A stretch of DNA of 11,896 bases from Candidatus Hermodarchaeota archaeon (GTDB taxonomy: Archaea > Asgardarchaeota > Hermodarchaeia > Hermodarchaeales > Hermodarchaeaceae). Under the pieces are notes generated by a model. It was not told where the DNA came from. It searched no databases and worked only from the letters and a program-made list of their open reading frames with translations. The translations under genes were made by a program, and so were the position numbers. Shown here in pieces: positions 3,330 through 9,645 of this stretch. The stretch lies in contig JAEOUH010000019.1 in the NCBI GenBank assembly GCA_016839365.1, positions 1-11,896 on the forward strand, written 5' to 3'. Position 1 is the stretch's first letter, and each line of letters begins with the position of its first letter.

Positions 3330-4313
3330 ATGCATCAGGAGCTCAATGTCGAAGAGCGGCTTTGCAGCATCTCGGAGAAAGCCCAACTGGCCATGCTCTT
3401 AGATATTCTTACCCCAAAACCTGGCAATGTACACCGATACAAGGACCATCATGATACGAGGCTTATTCATTTTGCAGCTAGCATCGCACGGCTAGCCCAT
3501 CCAATTTACCAGGCTGCCCGTTGGGGTTATCAACGTAACAAATCATCGCAAGGTCCTTCTAAATTGGGAGAATTAACCAAGCTCGCATTACAGGCCTCAA
3601 TGAAACCCCATAGGAAAAATACATTGCTTGGAACCATTCTCCTCATTATACCCCTTGCAGTGGCTGCAGGTTACGAAATTCCACGCCCCAAATGGTCACC
3701 CTCAACACTCCGTCAAAGTCTTTCGCACATCCTTCATCAGTCCTCAATCGATGACGCCATAGAACTCATTCGCAGCCTCCAAATCGCTAATCCCGGAGGT
3801 GGGAAACCAAAGACACCTCATTGGACTGAGGAATCCCAAGCCTTTGATTTCCAATCTCCCCGAACAATCGAAGCGATTCGTCGCGAGAAATACACCCTCC
3901 TTGATTTACAGGCCCTAGCTGCACCTTTTGATTCGATAGCTGAAGAATACACCACGGATTTCAGTTATACTTTCGATATATTATATCCAAGGTTCATTGA
4001 GGCATTAAACCAGCACCCACGTGTCGAAGACGCCGTTCTCATTTCCTATCTTTGGGCGTTAGGGCAACGTCCTGACACCTTCATCCAACGCAAGGTCGGA
4101 CCTGATGTGGCCCAGCAAGTCACAAATAAAGCACACAAACTCCATAACCGAATCCTCGAATTACCTGAGGACCGCTGGCAGAAGGAACTCATAGTCTTTG
4201 ATGAGTATCTACGATCCGAAGGCTCTCGACTCAACCCAGGTACGACGGCTGACCTTCTCTCCGCAGCAGTTTTTCTTGCCCTTTTACTTGATAAGATCAA
4301 GCTAATTTTCTAG
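3330..4313 (+). CDS. citG: CitG-like protein (triphosphoribosyl-dephospho-CoA synthase family, archaeal/H4MPT-associated type)
   Basis: Motifs KPGNVHR, NT.LGTILL, PDTFIQRK.G and LNPGTTADL are typical of the CitG/COG1767 family. No citrate lyase or malonate decarboxylase genes in the window, so the canonical function is not assured. Confidence 0.85.
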   Translation: MHQELNVEERLCSISEKAQLAMLLDILTPKPGNVHRYKDHHDTRLIHFAASIARLAHPIYQAARWGYQRNKSSQGPSKLGELTKLALQASMKPHRKNTLLGTILLIIPLAVAAGYEIPRPKWSPSTLRQSLSHILHQSSIDDAIELIRSLQIANPGGGKPKTPHWTEESQAFDFQSPRTIEAIRREKYTLLDLQALAAPFDSIAEEYTTDFSYTFDILYPRFIEALNQHPRVEDAVLISYLWALGQRPDTFIQRKVGPDVAQQVTNKAHKLHNRILELPEDRWQKELIVFDEYLRSEGSRLNPGTTADLLSAAVFLALLLDKIKLIF

Positions 4314-4360: not shown

Positions 4361-5845
4361 CTAGGGTTCCCATTTGAAGGGGTGTTTTGCATACTCTTTG
4401 TCGGAGAGCAGTTCATTGATGCTCGGACGTCCTTCGATGGCGCGGCGGAGGGCATGACGCATGGCCTTGTAGTTGTTAATGAGAATACGTTTCCGATCCA
4501 CTGCTGTTGGATGCACAAAAACGGTTGCAACAATTAACAATTGGTCGACAGCGGATTTGGGGATAAGTCCTTCTTCAACCGAATCCATCACCGCTTTGGC
4601 ACACCCGGTTTGAGCTGGACCACCGAATAAGCTAGCCTGGTGCATGCTCCGATTAGCTACTGTTGGTACAAGGAGGGTCTCAGGTTTGACCATGAGATTG
4701 GGTTCGAGAATAGCGAGAAGGGGCTCCATACGTTCCTTAGGTGCTGTTTTTGCCTGGGCAAAGGCATATCCCACTGGCCCGTCCTTGCGTCCAATCATTA
4801 GGTCGATATGGGCGACTTCTGCACCAGTCCCGGCAAGTCCTTCTCCTACCTTAATGGAGAAGTCTTTGATGTGCTCGGGTGTGAACCCGATGACGCCGAA
4901 TCGCGCCTCTAGAGGTTCTTTGGGCTCAACTTCAATTTTCACCGGTTTACGCTCGATTTTTCCAAGCTTCTCCAGTTCAATGCGGATTTCTTCACGGTTC
5001 TCGTAGGTGAGAACTCCGCCAAACGTTAGTGGGAGTCGGGGTTTACCCACTGGGACACCAATCATATTCAATCCGGCCTTTGTACCCACAGCTCCGGACC
5101 CCACAATTAATCTTGTGAGTTTCTGGACCTTGAGCTGCAAAGCAATAGCTTCCGCATATTTTTTGGCCTGAACTTTCTGTAACATCTCGACCCAAATGTC
5201 ACCGATGAGTTGTGCACTAGCTAGAATCGCTCCTGAACATCCTGAAGCGAGAGCTGGAAACACGACCTCGTCATGGCCGACTAATACGTTTATCTTTGAT
5301 CCGACTTTTTCCAAGACCGCAAGGATGAGTTTGAGTTGCCCGCTGGAATCTTTGAGGCCAACGATATTATCGAGGTCGGCTAAATCTTCAACTATTTGCC
5401 AGGGCATATCTAGACCCGTGCATTGGGGAATGTTGTAGAGAATAATTGGCAATCCCACCTCATTCACAAGGCGATAATGTTCGTACAATCCACGCAGGGT
5501 GGGGCGCATATAGTAGGGAGTAACTACAAGGCAGGCATCAGCCCCTGATTTCTGGGCAGATTCAACAAGCTCGATTGTTGTTTTCGTGTTACTAGCACCA
5601 GCTCCTGCGATGACGGGGACTTTTCCCGCTGCCTCCTCTATGGCAAGTTTGACCACGCGTTTGTGTTCTTCAATAGTCAAACTGGTGAATTCGCCGGTTG
5701 TTCCTGCAGGGACAAGTCCGGTGATTCCTAGATTGTCAATGCAATGGCGAATCAGCCGGCGAAATGCAGCGTCATCAACTTTTACGCCATCCTTTGTGAA
5801 AGGAGTAACTAGTGCGGGGTTAATACCGCCTGGTTTAAATCCCAT
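4361..5845 (-). CDS. Fusion protein: N-terminal DapA/NAL-family class I aldolase + C-terminal formaldehyde-activating enzyme (Fae) domain
   Basis: aa 1-~296: LVTPF, GTTGE, PYY, LYNIP (Tyr137), GLKDSSG (Schiff-base Lys165), RLPL. aa ~329-494: VGEG..G.G.EVAHIDLMIG (His346), PLLAILEPNL..KP.TL, GPAQ...AKAV.D.V.EG.IP, VFVHP, NY.A, KHPF. Single uninterrupted frame. SD AGGAG at 5855-5859 (- strand). Confidence 0.93.
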   Translation of the reverse strand: MGFKPGGINPALVTPFTKDGVKVDDAAFRRLIRHCIDNLGITGLVPAGTTGEFTSLTIEEHKRVVKLAIEEAAGKVPVIAGAGASNTKTTIELVESAQKSGADACLVVTPYYMRPTLRGLYEHYRLVNEVGLPIILYNIPQCTGLDMPWQIVEDLADLDNIVGLKDSSGQLKLILAVLEKVGSKINVLVGHDEVVFPALASGCSGAILASAQLIGDIWVEMLQKVQAKKYAEAIALQLKVQKLTRLIVGSGAVGTKAGLNMIGVPVGKPRLPLTFGGVLTYENREEIRIELEKLGKIERKPVKIEVEPKEPLEARFGVIGFTPEHIKDFSIKVGEGLAGTGAEVAHIDLMIGRKDGPVGYAFAQAKTAPKERMEPLLAILEPNLMVKPETLLVPTVANRSMHQASLFGGPAQTGCAKAVMDSVEEGLIPKSAVDQLLIVATVFVHPTAVDRKRILINNYKAMRHALRRAIEGRPSINELLSDKEYAKHPFKWEP

Positions 5846-5869: not shown

Positions 5870-6817
5870 TTAAGGCTGAGGAATGGCTAAATCCTTCGCA
5901 CCAAGCTTTGATAATTTCGCTTCTGGATAATTATCTTGGATGAGGTTCCGAACGATTTCAGCCCACTTGACTTTTTCACGTGCTAGAAAACTGAGTCCAT
6001 CAATCGATGACCAAGGTGTGTATAACGCCATGCTGGGTCCAGGTTCAAATTTATAATAAACCGGCTGAACGCATCGGGTGATTTCCGCCGCTTCATAGAA
6101 TCGATTAAAGCCTCCAAAGCTGGGCATCAACATGATGTGGATGTCAATGGGTAGGTTAGTGGCTTGACGGATGGCGGCCAGTTGAGGAATAGTCATATCG
6201 GCAACGGGGTTGAAACTCCCTGCCCCTAGCTGTTCAAGCAGTTTTCCTCCCGCTGGGGAGGCGTGGCCTGCGAAGATGCTGACTTTGAAGGTAATATCCT
6301 TGGGGATTTCACCAATCTCTTTGAGTTTATTCAATGCCCAGAGGAGTCCTTCATCAATCACTAAGAATCCTCGGAAGCCTAAATCAATACCACGTTTGAT
6401 GTCGGCAATCACTTCTACAAGCTTGTCGGCACCTCGAAATCGCATGCCTGACAAAATACCATCGGGGGTTGCCACTTGTCTGCCAACATCCCAGCTCGTG
6501 CGGGGGCCCGGTGTCAGAATAACTTCCATTTGCGCGTCATGTGCAAGTTGGGCAAATTTCTTGAGCTCTTTATCATCAAGCAGAGTGGCTCCCATCACTA
6601 CGCTGATAAGCCGATGTACTGGCATTTTTCGCTTATCAGCTTCATCGATTAGTGCTTCTAAGACCTCTGGGCGTTCGACGCCAGAGATTTCGATACGATA
6701 GCCGGCTCCATCTGGAAACCGTTTTTCGCTAGTCGGTAGATCATATGCATCTTGCCCGGGCAACCCAATTTTTTCAAGGGCTTTCCGGACCTTTTCATAA
6801 GATTTCAAACTCACCAT
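5870..6817 (-). CDS. Uncharacterised TIM-barrel protein, peptidase U32-like family
   Basis: Conserved-looking blocks (D..DLPTSEKRFPDGA.YRIEI, GPR.SWD.G, G.RGFLV.DEGLLW, FKVS, LE.LGA.SFNP, L..IR....LPID, E..R...PVY.K) that I recognise from proteins auto-annotated as U32 peptidase. Ends 24 nt upstream of the aldolase-Fae gene. The ORF is secure, the function is not. Confidence 0.65.
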   Translation of the reverse strand: MVSLKSYEKVRKALEKIGLPGQDAYDLPTSEKRFPDGAGYRIEISGVERPEVLEALIDEADKRKMPVHRLISVVMGATLLDDKELKKFAQLAHDAQMEVILTPGPRTSWDVGRQVATPDGILSGMRFRGADKLVEVIADIKRGIDLGFRGFLVIDEGLLWALNKLKEIGEIPKDITFKVSIFAGHASPAGGKLLEQLGAGSFNPVADMTIPQLAAIRQATNLPIDIHIMLMPSFGGFNRFYEAAEITRCVQPVYYKFEPGPSMALYTPWSSIDGLSFLAREKVKWAEIVRNLIQDNYPEAKLSKLGAKDLAIPQP

Positions 6818-6855
6818 AAGGAGTCCCTCGAATAGATGGGTTTTGCCTGTTGCTG

Positions 6856-6864
6856 TTTAAAAAA
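6856..6864 (-). promoter_or_regulatory. TATA box of the U32-like/aldolase-Fae operon
   Basis: TTTTTTAAA on the - strand, ~39 nt upstream of ATG 6817. SD-like GAGGGA at 6824-6829. Confidence 0.55.
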
Positions 6865-6874
6865 GGTTAACCTT
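6863..6874. promoter_or_regulatory. Perfect 12-bp palindrome, candidate operator
   Basis: AAGGTTAACCTT abutting the TATA box at the BRE position. Confidence 0.35.
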
Positions 6875-6920
6875 GTCGCGTTTAGGGAGCTTTTTTCAGT
6901 CCATATGAGAAAGCATACAC

Positions 6921-7010
6921 GGCTCTGTCGATACGGCTATCTTAAACCCGCCGAGGCCTCCGATTTGGAGCTGCGAGGAAAGTGGGTTCAGTCAAGACAG
7001 AGCCACACCT
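6921..7010 (+). ncRNA. Box H/ACA pseudouridylation guide sRNA (single hairpin, archaeal type), predicted target LSU rRNA helix 69
   Basis: Perfect 9-bp basal stem GGCTCTGTC (6921-6929) / GACAGAGCC (6996-7004), followed immediately by ACA (7005-7007) + 3 nt and a pyrimidine tract. Internal pocket 6930-6944 / 6989-6995. Upper stem AACCCGC/GTGGGTT. K-turn-like CCGA (6951-6954) / GCGAGGA (6973-6979). Apical stem CTCCG/TGGAG. 16 nt from pocket top to ACA. Pocket complementary to conserved LSU sequence UGACU..UCUUAAGGUAGCC. Confidence 0.8.
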
Positions 7011-7043
7011 CTTCCTTTATCCATCCTATTCGAGTTGTAAGTC

Positions 7044-8180
7044 ATGGAGATTACAGATCTTATCACACCGGCACTGATTATCGACAAAACTAAACTCCTG
7101 CGAAACATTCAATGGATGGCCGAAAAAGCGCAACGGAATGGGGTTCAGCTTCGCCCACATATCAAAACCCACAAATGCATAGAAATTGCCAATCTCCAAA
7201 ACGAGTATGGTGCAGAAGGTATCACTGTGTCCACATTGGGGGAGGCTGCCGTCTTTATAGATAATGGGTTCTCAGACGTCACCTTAGCTTACCCTGTCAT
7301 CCCAGACAAATTCTTGACCCTGCTCAAATTAGCCCAAAAAGCTCAGATAAATGTGGTTACAGATCACCCGACCGTTGCAACCCAACTCGAAGCCCAGTGT
7401 ATTGCCGCAGACAATATTCTTAATGTGTTAGTCAAAATCGACTGTGGGTATCACCGCTGTGGAGTCGACCCCAAGGATCCAATGGCACTCAAGCTCGCTA
7501 AGCAAGTCGCAGATGCTTCCCATCTCACCTTTGGGGGAATTCTAACTCATGCAGGTCATGCGTATCATGCCACTTTGCGGGAGGAAATCCAAACCATAGC
7601 GAACATTGAACAAGAAGTGATGCTTCAATTTACGAAAACACTACAAGATAACGGGCTAGCCCCTGAAACCGTATCAATCGGTTCTACTCCCACTATGATG
7701 CAGGCCCCCAACTTCAAACCGGGAATAACTGAAATCCGCCCTGGAAACTATGTTTTCTTCGATAATACCCAGGCCTTACTTGGTTCCTGTTCACTGGCAG
7801 ATTGTGCACTCACAGTACTAACAAGTGTAGTAAGTGTCCAGGATTCACATATCGTGGTTGATGCAGGAGCTACTGCCCTCTCAAAGGATGCAGGGGCCAC
7901 TCATATTTCTACACACCAAGGATATGGCCTCGTTTTCATACTTGGAGATGAATTCGAACCAACTGCAGCTCAAATCACCCAGCTTTCCCAAGAACATGGC
8001 AAAATCAAGTTCCCCAACTCCCACCACAAATCCCTCATACCTGGGGATCATCTACAAATAATCCCAAACCACTCATGCCTCACGGCTAACCTTTTTGATC
8101 AATATTACGTCATCGATAATAATCGGGTTATCACCACCTGGCCTATACACCGCAACCGGCTCCAGTCTCCTCTAGCCTAA
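7044..8180 (+). CDS. Fold-type III PLP enzyme, D-serine dehydratase (Dsd1)/D-threonine aldolase-like family
   Basis: TPALIID, LRPHIKTHK (PLP Lys), DCGYHRCG, THAGH, GSTPT, EIRPGNYVFFD, LSQEHG, IPNHSC (His/Cys Zn ligands). Confidence 0.9.
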   Translation: MEITDLITPALIIDKTKLLRNIQWMAEKAQRNGVQLRPHIKTHKCIEIANLQNEYGAEGITVSTLGEAAVFIDNGFSDVTLAYPVIPDKFLTLLKLAQKAQINVVTDHPTVATQLEAQCIAADNILNVLVKIDCGYHRCGVDPKDPMALKLAKQVADASHLTFGGILTHAGHAYHATLREEIQTIANIEQEVMLQFTKTLQDNGLAPETVSIGSTPTMMQAPNFKPGITEIRPGNYVFFDNTQALLGSCSLADCALTVLTSVVSVQDSHIVVDAGATALSKDAGATHISTHQGYGLVFILGDEFEPTAAQITQLSQEHGKIKFPNSHHKSLIPGDHLQIIPNHSCLTANLFDQYYVIDNNRVITTWPIHRNRLQSPLA

Positions 8181-8197: not shown

Positions 8198-9148
8198 GTG
8201 ACCGAAATAAAACAAACTGCGACCCTTCCTCCCTCATTACAAGAACGCTTCCAAATGCTACTAGGTGATGAATATCCACAATTCCTTGATGCGATATCAA
8301 AACCACCTACGCATTTCGTCCGAATCAATACTCTGAAAACAGATATCGATGCAGGTCTTAAGCAACTTAAGCAACTCGACATCACCTACTTACCACTCCC
8401 CTGGTACTCTGCTGGATTTCGGATATCAGGGAACCTTGAACACCTTCCCTTCACTAAAGAATATTCTCTTGGATGGTACTATATCCAAGAAGGCGGAAGT
8501 ATGCTACCCCCCGTCGTTCTCAACCCCCAATCCCACGATTCTGTCCTTGACATATGTGCTGCTCCTGGTTCAAAAACAACACAAATGGCCCAAATGATGA
8601 ACAATAAAGGAGCCATTATTGCAAACGACCGTTCCTTCCGCCGACTAACTAGTCTGGGACACAATATCCAAGTCTGCGGTATTATCAACACCATCACTCT
8701 CTGTCAGGATGGACGGCACCTTTCAACCCGGCTTCCGCTTCAGTTTGACCGAATTTCAGTTGATGTACCCTGTACTGCTTCAGGACATCTTCGGAGTAAA
8801 CCGCCACAATTTGAAGTTCCAGACCTACGACGCATCCTTGGAATACAAACCATTCAAAAAGGTCTGCTAACCGCCGCATTTCGCCTCCTCAAGCCTGAAG
8901 GCTCACTAGTCTATTCCACCTGTAGTATACACCCTGAAGAAAATGAAGCAGTGGTTGACCATCTACTTCGCAGTTCATCTGACGCGGTGTTAAAAATCCC
9001 TCAACTATCTAACTATCGCAGCCACCCCGGAATCACACAATGGAGTGACGTCCATTTTTCAGAAAAGCTTACTAAATGTTTACGCATCTACCCGCACGAT
9101 AATGACACTGACAGCTTTTTCATAGCTCTAATAAGGAAGGAGGCATGA
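8198..9148 (+). CDS. RsmB/RsmF/NOP2 family RNA cytosine-C5 methyltransferase
   Basis: RINTLK, YYIQE..S, DICAAPGSKTTQ (SAM motif I), DVPCTASG (motif IV Cys), YSTCSIHPEENE (motif VI Cys), RIYPH...DSFFIA. Confidence 0.95.
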   Translation: MTEIKQTATLPPSLQERFQMLLGDEYPQFLDAISKPPTHFVRINTLKTDIDAGLKQLKQLDITYLPLPWYSAGFRISGNLEHLPFTKEYSLGWYYIQEGGSMLPPVVLNPQSHDSVLDICAAPGSKTTQMAQMMNNKGAIIANDRSFRRLTSLGHNIQVCGIINTITLCQDGRHLSTRLPLQFDRISVDVPCTASGHLRSKPPQFEVPDLRRILGIQTIQKGLLTAAFRLLKPEGSLVYSTCSIHPEENEAVVDHLLRSSSDAVLKIPQLSNYRSHPGITQWSDVHFSEKLTKCLRIYPHDNDTDSFFIALIRKEA

Positions 9149-9645
9149 TGGCGCAAATAAAGGCATTAACTATGGATCTCGAAAGAGAAACCCATGTCTG
9201 GCAACTGCTCAAGAAACAATTTGGAATTCCTAAACTTGCAGGATATCGATTCTTGAAATCCGGGCGAAAACGAATCCGTCTAATCAGCGAAGCTGCTTTC
9301 AAACTTCTTTCCAAGCTTCCCTACACCGGAACAACAGGACTCTATATCGGTGAGTATTCACCGAAGGCCTTCCGGCTCTCAATGGATGGTGCCCAACTGC
9401 TCGGACATCATGCTACAAAACAGAAAGTGGAATTAACCGATGTTCAAGCTCAACAGTGGTTACAGGGGGAATCGGTTAATTATGAAGACATACAAAGAGG
9501 GTATGTAATCGTCATTCACAACAACACAATCCTTGGGTGCGGCAGTCTCTCTAAAGGTCTGCTTCGCAGCTTCGTTCCAAAGATCCGACGACTCAAACTA
9601 TCCGATCAGCTTCCTGGTGGAGAATGTTCATGTCAGTCACCATAA
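9145..9645 (+). CDS. Nip7-like / RsmF C-terminal PUA-domain RNA-binding protein
   Basis: GLYIGE....FRLS.DGAQLLG..ATK..VEL....A..W..GE.V, GYVIV.....ILGCG and FVPK.RR match the RsmF C-terminal/Nip7-type pre-PUA+PUA pattern. Overlaps the methyltransferase stop (ATGATG). SD AGGAGG at 9138-9143; the true start may be 9148. Confidence 0.8.
   Translation: MMAQIKALTMDLERETHVWQLLKKQFGIPKLAGYRFLKSGRKRIRLISEAAFKLLSKLPYTGTTGLYIGEYSPKAFRLSMDGAQLLGHHATKQKVELTDVQAQQWLQGESVNYEDIQRGYVIVIHNNTILGCGSLSKGLLRSFVPKIRRLKLSDQLPGGECSCQSP

Follow-up and report, generated by a model that had tools for sequence, protein, structure and literature searches.

A conserved hairpin in a Hermodarchaeota archaeon resembling a box H/ACA guide RNA with a probable target in helix 69 of 23S rRNA

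The locus and its genes

The window analyzed here, that is, the whole stretch of DNA (11.9 kb), is an entire contig (C68) of an archaeal MAG of 2.2 Mb that is 84% complete. An Asgard host had been proposed for this DNA, and because the close relatives of the window's proteins are titled Candidatus Hermodarchaeota or Promethearchaeota, the host is, judging from these proteins, an Asgard (Hermodarchaeota) archaeon. The hairpin under study lies within a 226-nt gap separating two divergent genes, and the features of this region are as follows.

5870-6817, minus strand: 315-aa ORF, upstream divergent neighbor
6836-7093: mechanical ORF of 85 aa, overlapping the hairpin
6891-6898, plus strand: TATA-like box (UUUUUUCA), preceded by the purine-rich GGGAGC, with its center ~27 nt upstream of the first stem base
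6921-6929, plus strand: 5' strand of the lower stem H1 (GGCUCUGUC), pairing with 6996-7004
6930-6934, plus strand: unpaired part of the 5' pocket (GAUAC), variable among homologues
6935-6945, plus strand: 5' guide strand GGCUAUCUUAA, complementary to 23S UUAAGGUAGCC with one U.G pair
6946-6951, plus strand: 5' strand of the upper stem H2 (ACCCGC), 100% of cells paired
6952-6954, plus strand: non-bulged strand of the K-turn-like motif, C-G-A (3n, 2n, 1n), followed by G6955 (-1n)
6955-6974, plus strand: apical hairpin with a 3-nt loop, the irregular C-stem of the predicted K-turn
6975-6981, plus strand: bulged strand of the K-turn-like motif, G-A-G (L1-L3), G6978-A6979 (1b, 2b), A6980 (3b) and an extra A6981
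6982-6988, plus strand: 3' strand of H2 (GUGGGU plus U6988), covarying with 6945-6951
6989-6995, plus strand: 3' guide strand CAGUCAA, of which A6990-A6994 pair with 23S UGACU
6996-7004, plus strand: 3' strand of H1 (GACAGAGCC), with changes compensatory to 6921-6929
7005-7007, plus strand: ACA box, directly 3' of the lower stem
7044-8180, plus strand: D-serine-dehydratase-like gene, downstream neighbor

The TATA-like box was found at an equal distance from the hairpin in all 17 homologues (described below), as (G/A)GGAGCTTTTTTCA in the window's genus (g1) and as GAAGG(A/G)TTTTATCA in the sister genus (g2); the T-rich box together with the preceding purines reads GGGAGCUUUUUUCA, and UUUUAUCA in the sister genus. 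A position ~27 nt upstream is the spacing expected for an archaeal TATA box, and we regard the element as a putative sRNA promoter. One metatranscriptome, from a source study, had no contigs on this stretch and was uninformative either way.

Several observations concern the neighboring genes. The 315-aa protein has no Pfam or NCBIfam match, yet it is 82-96% identical across the family, a conservation that the gene beyond the hairpin does not nearly reach. Its language-model look-alikes were clusters in which 17-23% of the members carry Peptidase_U32, which may serve as a lead only; the Peptidase_U32 family includes RNA and quinone hydroxylases (RlhA, TrhP, UbiU/V). Two genes downstream of the guide RNA, a NOL1/NOP2/Sun-type RNA m5C methyltransferase is split over two overlapping ORFs on the plus strand (8198-9148 and 9145-9645), the catalytic ORF being 316 aa long and the second (166 aa) bearing a PUA-like RsmF C-terminal domain. 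On the upstream side, a DHDPS-family aldolase fused to a formaldehyde-activating enzyme (Fae) domain (4361-5845, minus strand) adjoins a CitG-like triphosphoribosyl-dephospho-CoA synthase (3330-4313).

A conserved and covarying hairpin

The initial annotation had proposed an unannotated single-hairpin box H/ACA guide RNA at this place, a view that is supported by the conserved covarying hairpin, the ACA box and the complementarity to rRNA. The architecture it described could be recognized part by part. The basal stem is a perfect 9 bp (6921-6929 with 6996-7004), the ACA box follows it directly and lies 16 nt (C6989-C7004) from the upper stem, which is formed by 6945/6-6951 and 6982-6987/8, and the pocket between the two stems is asymmetric, with 16 nt on its 5' side and 7 nt on its 3' side. 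The GA dinucleotides of the proposed GA/GA motif are located at 6953-54 and 6978-79. Computational folding of the sequence beat that of shuffled controls (z = -2.9). In free RNA, A6945 is able to form a seventh H2 pair with U6988; the earlier caution that the pairing register requires A6945 to be available for the target was apt, as opening A6945 gives a canonical 6-bp upper stem. The MFE fold also closed the pocket with GGCU/AGUC, a detail that had no support in the alignment. With regard to known families, an Rfam/Infernal search at gathering thresholds gave no match to any curated H/ACA family, and three matches to a 281-nt region at a relaxed threshold (E<=10), all on the opposite (minus) strand, were attributed to chance.

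Using BLAST and a covariance model built here, we found the hairpin as a single copy in 13 of the 14 other genomes of the genus and in three of the four genomes of the sister genus, which resulted in an alignment of 17 homologues (14 from g1 and 3 from g2). Covarying homologues in related genomes, on which the proposal had been made to depend, were present in this alignment, and the ACA box was invariant, being kept in all 16 homologues whose contig extends that far. Overall, 98.7% of cells were paired, versus 29-46% for slid controls, and eight pairs (six of them in the lower stem) had changes on both sides; the observed values were reached by none of 500 shuffles. All nine pairs of the lower stem were formed in each of the 17 sequences, six of the nine showing both-side changes (for example CUGUC/GACAG, CCGUC/GACGG, CCAUC/GAUGG and GACCCCGC/GCGGGGUC), and H1 and H2 together were 100% paired with seven covarying pairs. 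In H2, the pair 6947/6986 occurred as C-G, U-A or U.G and the pair 6950/6983 as G.U or A-U. Conservation starts at the base of the stem and decays within a few bases past the ACA, and the G.U pairs place the RNA on the plus strand. Thus, the covariation excludes a chance structure, and the hairpin at 6921-7007 (plus strand) is genuine.

The internal loop above the upper stem is likely a K-turn, to which L7Ae would bind. It is invariant (non-bulged C-G-A in 17/17) while the flanking stems vary, and its best reading places the bulged strand C6974-GAG-G6978 A6979-A6980 opposite C6952-G6953 A6954-G6955. Individual positions (6952-6955 and 6974-6980) were assigned by comparison with the K-turn consensus, which this reading fits, and the motif resembles Kt-7. 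In the bulged strand, A6976, G6977, G6978, A6979 and A6981 were invariant and only 6975 (G/A) and 6980 (A/C/U) varied, corresponding to L1 and 3b, where a K-turn tolerates change. Two other arrangements, the MFE pair C6952-G6975 and a K-turn with G6975.A6954 as the first sheared pair, were rejected in view of a change of G6975 to A in three genomes. The predicted K-turn is imperfect: A6981 is an extra base where the sheared pairs meet H2, and the C-stem (G6956-C6971, C6958-G6970, U6959-A6969, C6960-G6968, C6961-G6967 and G6962.U6966) is irregular, its pair 6956/6971 being found as G-C, A-U, U-A and G.U. With A6945 open, the loop stands above a 6-bp H2, in agreement with the archaeal rule of an upper stem of 5-6 bp (PMC2377435, PMC7991803).

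The protein partners that such an RNA would need, cbf5, nop10, gar1 and L7Ae, had been named as a point to check, and all four scored above the Pfam cut-offs in the same assembly (G000), with two genes of the L7Ae family. The Cbf5 frame contains TruB_N, TruB_C_2 and PUA domains; it begins at a GTG a short distance before the TruB_N match and is cut off by the end of the contig (L045, G000:C6:11422-13643).

The distribution of the RNA appeared to be narrow. Covariance model R1 had no match in 133 Asgard genomes outside the family, and at E<=10 it gave only the 6921-7007 copy in the window's genome, without paralogues. A guide-derived pattern, which would miss analogous guides of other pairing registers, gave 15 matches outside the family in 400 Asgard genomes, a rate not above that of the reversed-pattern control, and none of the 15 had the lower stem. 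A strict home-made H/ACA descriptor recovered the hairpin together with ~20 AT-rich, mostly implausible candidates. The initial annotation had seen in this guide a sign of an archaeal origin of the modification; since the searches beyond a single Asgard family yielded neither a homologue nor an analogous guide, the RNA says little on that origin and leaves the view of it unchanged.

Pairing with 23S rRNA and the target uridine

Searches with archaeal and bacterial LSU models and for sequence motifs found no rRNA in the 84%-complete assembly, and because the host 23S is absent from it, target pairing was judged on the rRNA of relatives. The segment GUAACUAUGACUCUCUUAAGGUAGCCAAAUGCC was present in 23S genes from congeners (G005, G007), from the sister genus (G017) and from a number of further Asgard families, its same-genus form being UGACUC-U-C-UUAAGGUAGCC. 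The 11-nt pairing claimed for the 5' guide strand holds in these sequences, as 6935-6945 is complementary to UUAAGGUAGCC apart from one U.G pair. On the other hand, the UGACUG hexamer predicted as the partner of the 3' strand did not occur: every 23S examined had UGACUC or a close variant. Of the proposed CAGUCA pairing, five pairs remain (A6990-A6994 with UGACU), whereas C6989 faces C; A6995 faces A. This leaves C-U-C of the target unpaired, or U-C when the C.C mismatch is taken to be stacked within the helix, and total rRNA complementarity amounts to 16 bp, 11 from the 5' strand and 5 from the 3' strand. The site had been assigned to the equivalent of E. coli U1923 and yeast U2266, and this agrees with the relatives' rRNA, in which the sole unpaired U in the pocket is U1923, six bases 3' of the 1917 equivalent and corresponding to yeast U2266.

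The guide strands were also compared across the homologues. The 5' strand (6935-6945) was invariant in all 14 g1 sequences, and in many relatives the last base or bases of 6930-6934 lengthen the pairing to CCA(AA) of the target, gaining a pair to the A that follows GCC. The three g2 guides have lost one or two pairs beside the pocket (UCAUAA, UCAUUA, UCUUUA) and gained distal UUU:AAA pairs to the same target (CCAAA). In the 3' strand, G6991, U6992 and C6993 were invariant in the 17 sequences, and positions 6990 and 6994 were A or G (6994 in 16/17 sequences), either of which pairs with the target U; the C.C mismatch was U.C in one homologue. When 16S and 23S, and thus rRNA only, were scanned for H/ACA targets by a simple scoring procedure, the U in GACUC-U-CUUAAGGUAGCC was the top rRNA site for 17/17 guides. 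The window's guide scored 34 at this site, while the next distinct site scored 22 in rRNA sequences alone and 26 in whole fetched loci, and only 1 of 1000 shuffled guides reached 34. A 16S site, GUCG-U-AAC-AAGGUAGCC, came next in rank when the guide had CGGUC; it was rejected, as four bases would have to stay unpaired and the window's CAGUC does not fit it.

Target-ACA spacing in archaea is 14-16 nt (PMC7991803), so that the 16 nt of this RNA are at the upper end of the range; its 9-bp H1, too, is within what has been published for archaea. In Pyrococcus, functional spacings were 14-15 nt and the 3' helix was the more important (PMC2377435); a 15-nt spacing would put C1922 in the target position here. 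Assays with Haloferax and Methanocaldococcus components showed that modification still occurred when the U was shifted by one place in the 3' direction ('NU'), that a spacing of up to 17 nt was tolerated and that an unpaired UVUN could be modified at both U's (PMC7075261). Because these modes are active, we took U1923 as the likeliest target. We consider it quite probable that the RNA is a genuine H/ACA guide aimed at this helix 69 segment, and we are inclined, with somewhat less confidence, to see the U1923 equivalent as the base it modifies.

From these observations we infer transcription, RNP assembly and the identity of the modified uridine as follows. The region 6921-7007 (plus strand) would give a single-hairpin archaeal box H/ACA sRNA of ~87-90 nt, probably transcribed from its own TATA-like promoter ~27 nt upstream. 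L7Ae would bind the K-turn-like loop over the 6-bp upper stem, and Cbf5 with Nop10 and Gar1 would bind the ACA and the lower stem of 9 bp. In 23S rRNA, the open pocket would then engage helix 69 on its 3' strand and at the point where it joins helix 70: A6990-A6994 would pair with UGACU (E. coli 1917-1921) and G6935-A6945 with UUAAGGUAGCC (1925-1935), so that C1922-U1923-C1924 would remain at the pocket's top. The uridine converted to pseudouridine would be U1923, which is separated from the ACA by 16 guide nucleotides and is equivalent to yeast 25S U2266 and S. islandicus 23S U2066. Several observations speak against this reading as a whole: the C.C mismatch beside the target leaves a 3' helix of 5 bp, the spacing exceeds that of functional Pyrococcus guides, the K-turn is imperfect, the sister-genus guides are mismatched right beside the pocket, and there is no match in Rfam.

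It is also conceivable, if unlikely, that the guide modifies another or an additional uridine, namely U1921 (yeast psi2264), alone or in sequence with U1923. In this case A6990-U1921 would open and U-C-U-C would be unpaired in the pocket, similar to the 'UVUN' mode of Haloferax sR-h45; UCUC fits the UVUN rule, and UCUA was doubly modified in vitro (PMC7075261). Taking G6991-C1920 as the first pair would put 14 nt between U1921 and the ACA, as is canonical for Pyrococcus (PMC2377435), and both psi2264 and psi2266 are present in yeast. However, position 6990 is always A or G, each of which pairs with U1921, and opening this pair would leave a 3' helix of 4 bp, which was insufficient in Pyrococcus (PMC2377435). 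Moreover, in S. islandicus the modification is limited to the equivalents of 1917 and 1923 (PMC11077068). U1923 remains our preferred target.

Relation to known guide RNAs and introns at the binding site

In its testable features, the RNA would work like a classic single-hairpin archaeal box H/ACA sRNA, and it belongs to no curated family. Similar to Pab91 and Pab160/Pf9 of Pyrococcus and sR115 and sR435 of S. islandicus, it has a ~9-bp lower stem followed by ACA, a bipartite pseudouridylation pocket with an rRNA target, and a 5-6 bp upper stem with an L7Ae-type K-turn/K-loop cap, the K-turn being predicted here; these sRNAs depend on Cbf5, Nop10, Gar1 and L7Ae, whose four genes are all in this assembly. 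In contrast with these RNAs, it shows no detectable sequence or Rfam relationship, its ACA spacing is 16 nt rather than the 14-15 nt functional in Pyrococcus, and it has the C.C mismatch by the target, the extra A in the K-turn, the irregular C-stem and an Asgard host.

Two other archaeal RNAs are known to act on helix 69. S. islandicus sR148 is an atypical H/ACA RNA guiding 23S psi2060 and psi2066; the latter is the equivalent of yeast psi2266, is Cbf5- and guide-dependent, was lost on sR148 deletion and is conserved in S. acidocaldarius (PMC11077068). The RNA described here would address the same rRNA nucleotide (E. coli 1923), also with a short duplex 5' of the target, but it has the form of a classic hairpin, in which two guide strands and an ACA box are present, and there is no evident homology between the two. 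Stem-loop 2 of Haloferax volcanii sR-h45 is likewise an archaeal H/ACA hairpin acting on helix 69; it accepts target sites with more than two unpaired bases at the pocket's top, and its ACA box is required. The uridines it specifies are different ones, psi1940/psi1942 (E. coli 1915/1917), which lie in the loop and not in the stem, and the hairpin belongs to a double-hairpin RNA (PMC7075261). In Pyrococcus abyssi, only the helix 69 loop pseudouridine was found (PMC2377435).

As for eukaryotes, the RNA resembles snoRNAs of the yeast snR84 type in being a predicted guide for the same conserved uridine in UGACUCUCUUAAGGUAGCC and in its eukaryote-like spacing of ~16 nt. Yeast snR84 and other eukaryotic H/ACA snoRNAs are the guides for the helix 69 stem pseudouridines psi2264 and psi2266. 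Eukaryotic guides differ in being double hairpins with H and ACA boxes, in lacking a K-turn and in having Nhp2 in place of L7Ae. The initial annotation had regarded the site as eukaryote-type and UAGCC and UGACU as a special, eukaryote-like prediction. This was overstated, as AAGGUAGCC was present in every Asgard 23S fetched (nine families), with UAGCC in each Asgard sequence examined, and psi2066 has been mapped and genetically assigned in S. islandicus.

Thus, the RNA appears to be a new example of a well-known kind, and modification of its site has precedents in yeast and Sulfolobus. A search of a full-text library found no paper on H/ACA guide RNAs in Asgard archaea, and such RNAs are absent from MAG annotations and Rfam. 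For the archaea most closely related to eukaryotes, our analysis provides a specific pair of guide and target that can be put to the test, at a helix 69 position common to yeast and Sulfolobus, and bears on how a conserved rRNA pseudouridine is specified across Archaea: apparently by a classic guide here, by an atypical one in Sulfolobus and by none known in Pyrococcus. In addition, the alignment can serve as a covariance model seed for annotating the family.

The 23S genes of congeners contain group I introns inside the guide's binding site. In two of them (G005 C17, locus L010, and G007 C20, locus L011, both minus strand) UUAAGGU and AGCC are separated by an intron of ~325 nt, which scored 61-70 bits with Rfam Intron_gpI, above the gathering score. 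On another contig (G005 C60, locus L009), an insert of ~700 nt separates GACUCU from CUUAAGG, so that it follows immediately on the target U, and has group-I-like core sequences and an ORF resembling a LAGLIDADG homing endonuclease; G005 has both versions, on different contigs. Since the intron splits the binding site, full pairing would be possible only with ligated exons, and splicing would have to precede modification. That archaeal rRNA can contain group I introns has been described before (PMC6125680).

A bolder reading is that the RNA, which already has the eukaryote-like spacing of ~16 nt, shares common descent with the snoRNA lineage that makes psi2266 in yeast, or that it couples rRNA exon ligation to modification, the latter suggested by a binding site that spans the group I intron insertion sites in congeners; we judge this improbable. 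Common descent with eukaryotic snoRNAs cannot be shown from such short, target-constrained sequences. If true, it would mean that site-specific H/ACA guide lineages, beyond the protein machinery, predate eukaryogenesis.

We consider it very improbable that the RNA forms a non-catalytic H/ACA-type RNP, acting as a folding or assembly chaperone like eukaryotic snR30 or snR10, or is an orphan guide with a non-rRNA target. Such roles would agree with the non-ideal pocket, the C.C mismatch, the 16-17 nt spacing and the fact that in congeners with introns only ligated exons could be bound. Nevertheless, the pocket does offer a U, guided pseudouridylation of this very site is genuine in another archaeon (PMC11077068), guides of atypical geometry have retained activity in vitro (PMC7075261), and no other rRNA site scored as well in a target scan that covered rRNA only.

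Finally, a role other than in trans (a cis-regulatory leader, a promoter structure of a flanking gene, a small ORF at 6836-7093 or a chance hairpin) is extremely improbable: although the intergenic position between divergent genes, the synteny of the upstream 315-aa gene in nearly all homologous loci and the overlapping mechanical 85-aa ORF would suit it, the RNA is on the strand opposite to that conserved gene, and the downstream gene adjoins it in only 8 of the 16 other loci, so that it is not the leader of one particular gene. Compensatory changes, G.U pairs, an invariant ACA and 16 bp of rRNA complementarity would be unexpected in a leader, the ORF is excluded and a coding function disfavored by 1-nt indels in the apical loop of three genomes, and chance is excluded by the covariation.

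One further insertion was observed in the same helix 69/70 region. Another Asgard 23S (L002, G019:C1, ~3510-3570 of the locus) carries an insert of ~29 nt, CGGGAAAUCUCAACGAUUUCUCGAGAGAC, between CUCUUAA and AGGUAGCC, which its sister genome G030 lacks and which could be a mini-intron or an expansion.
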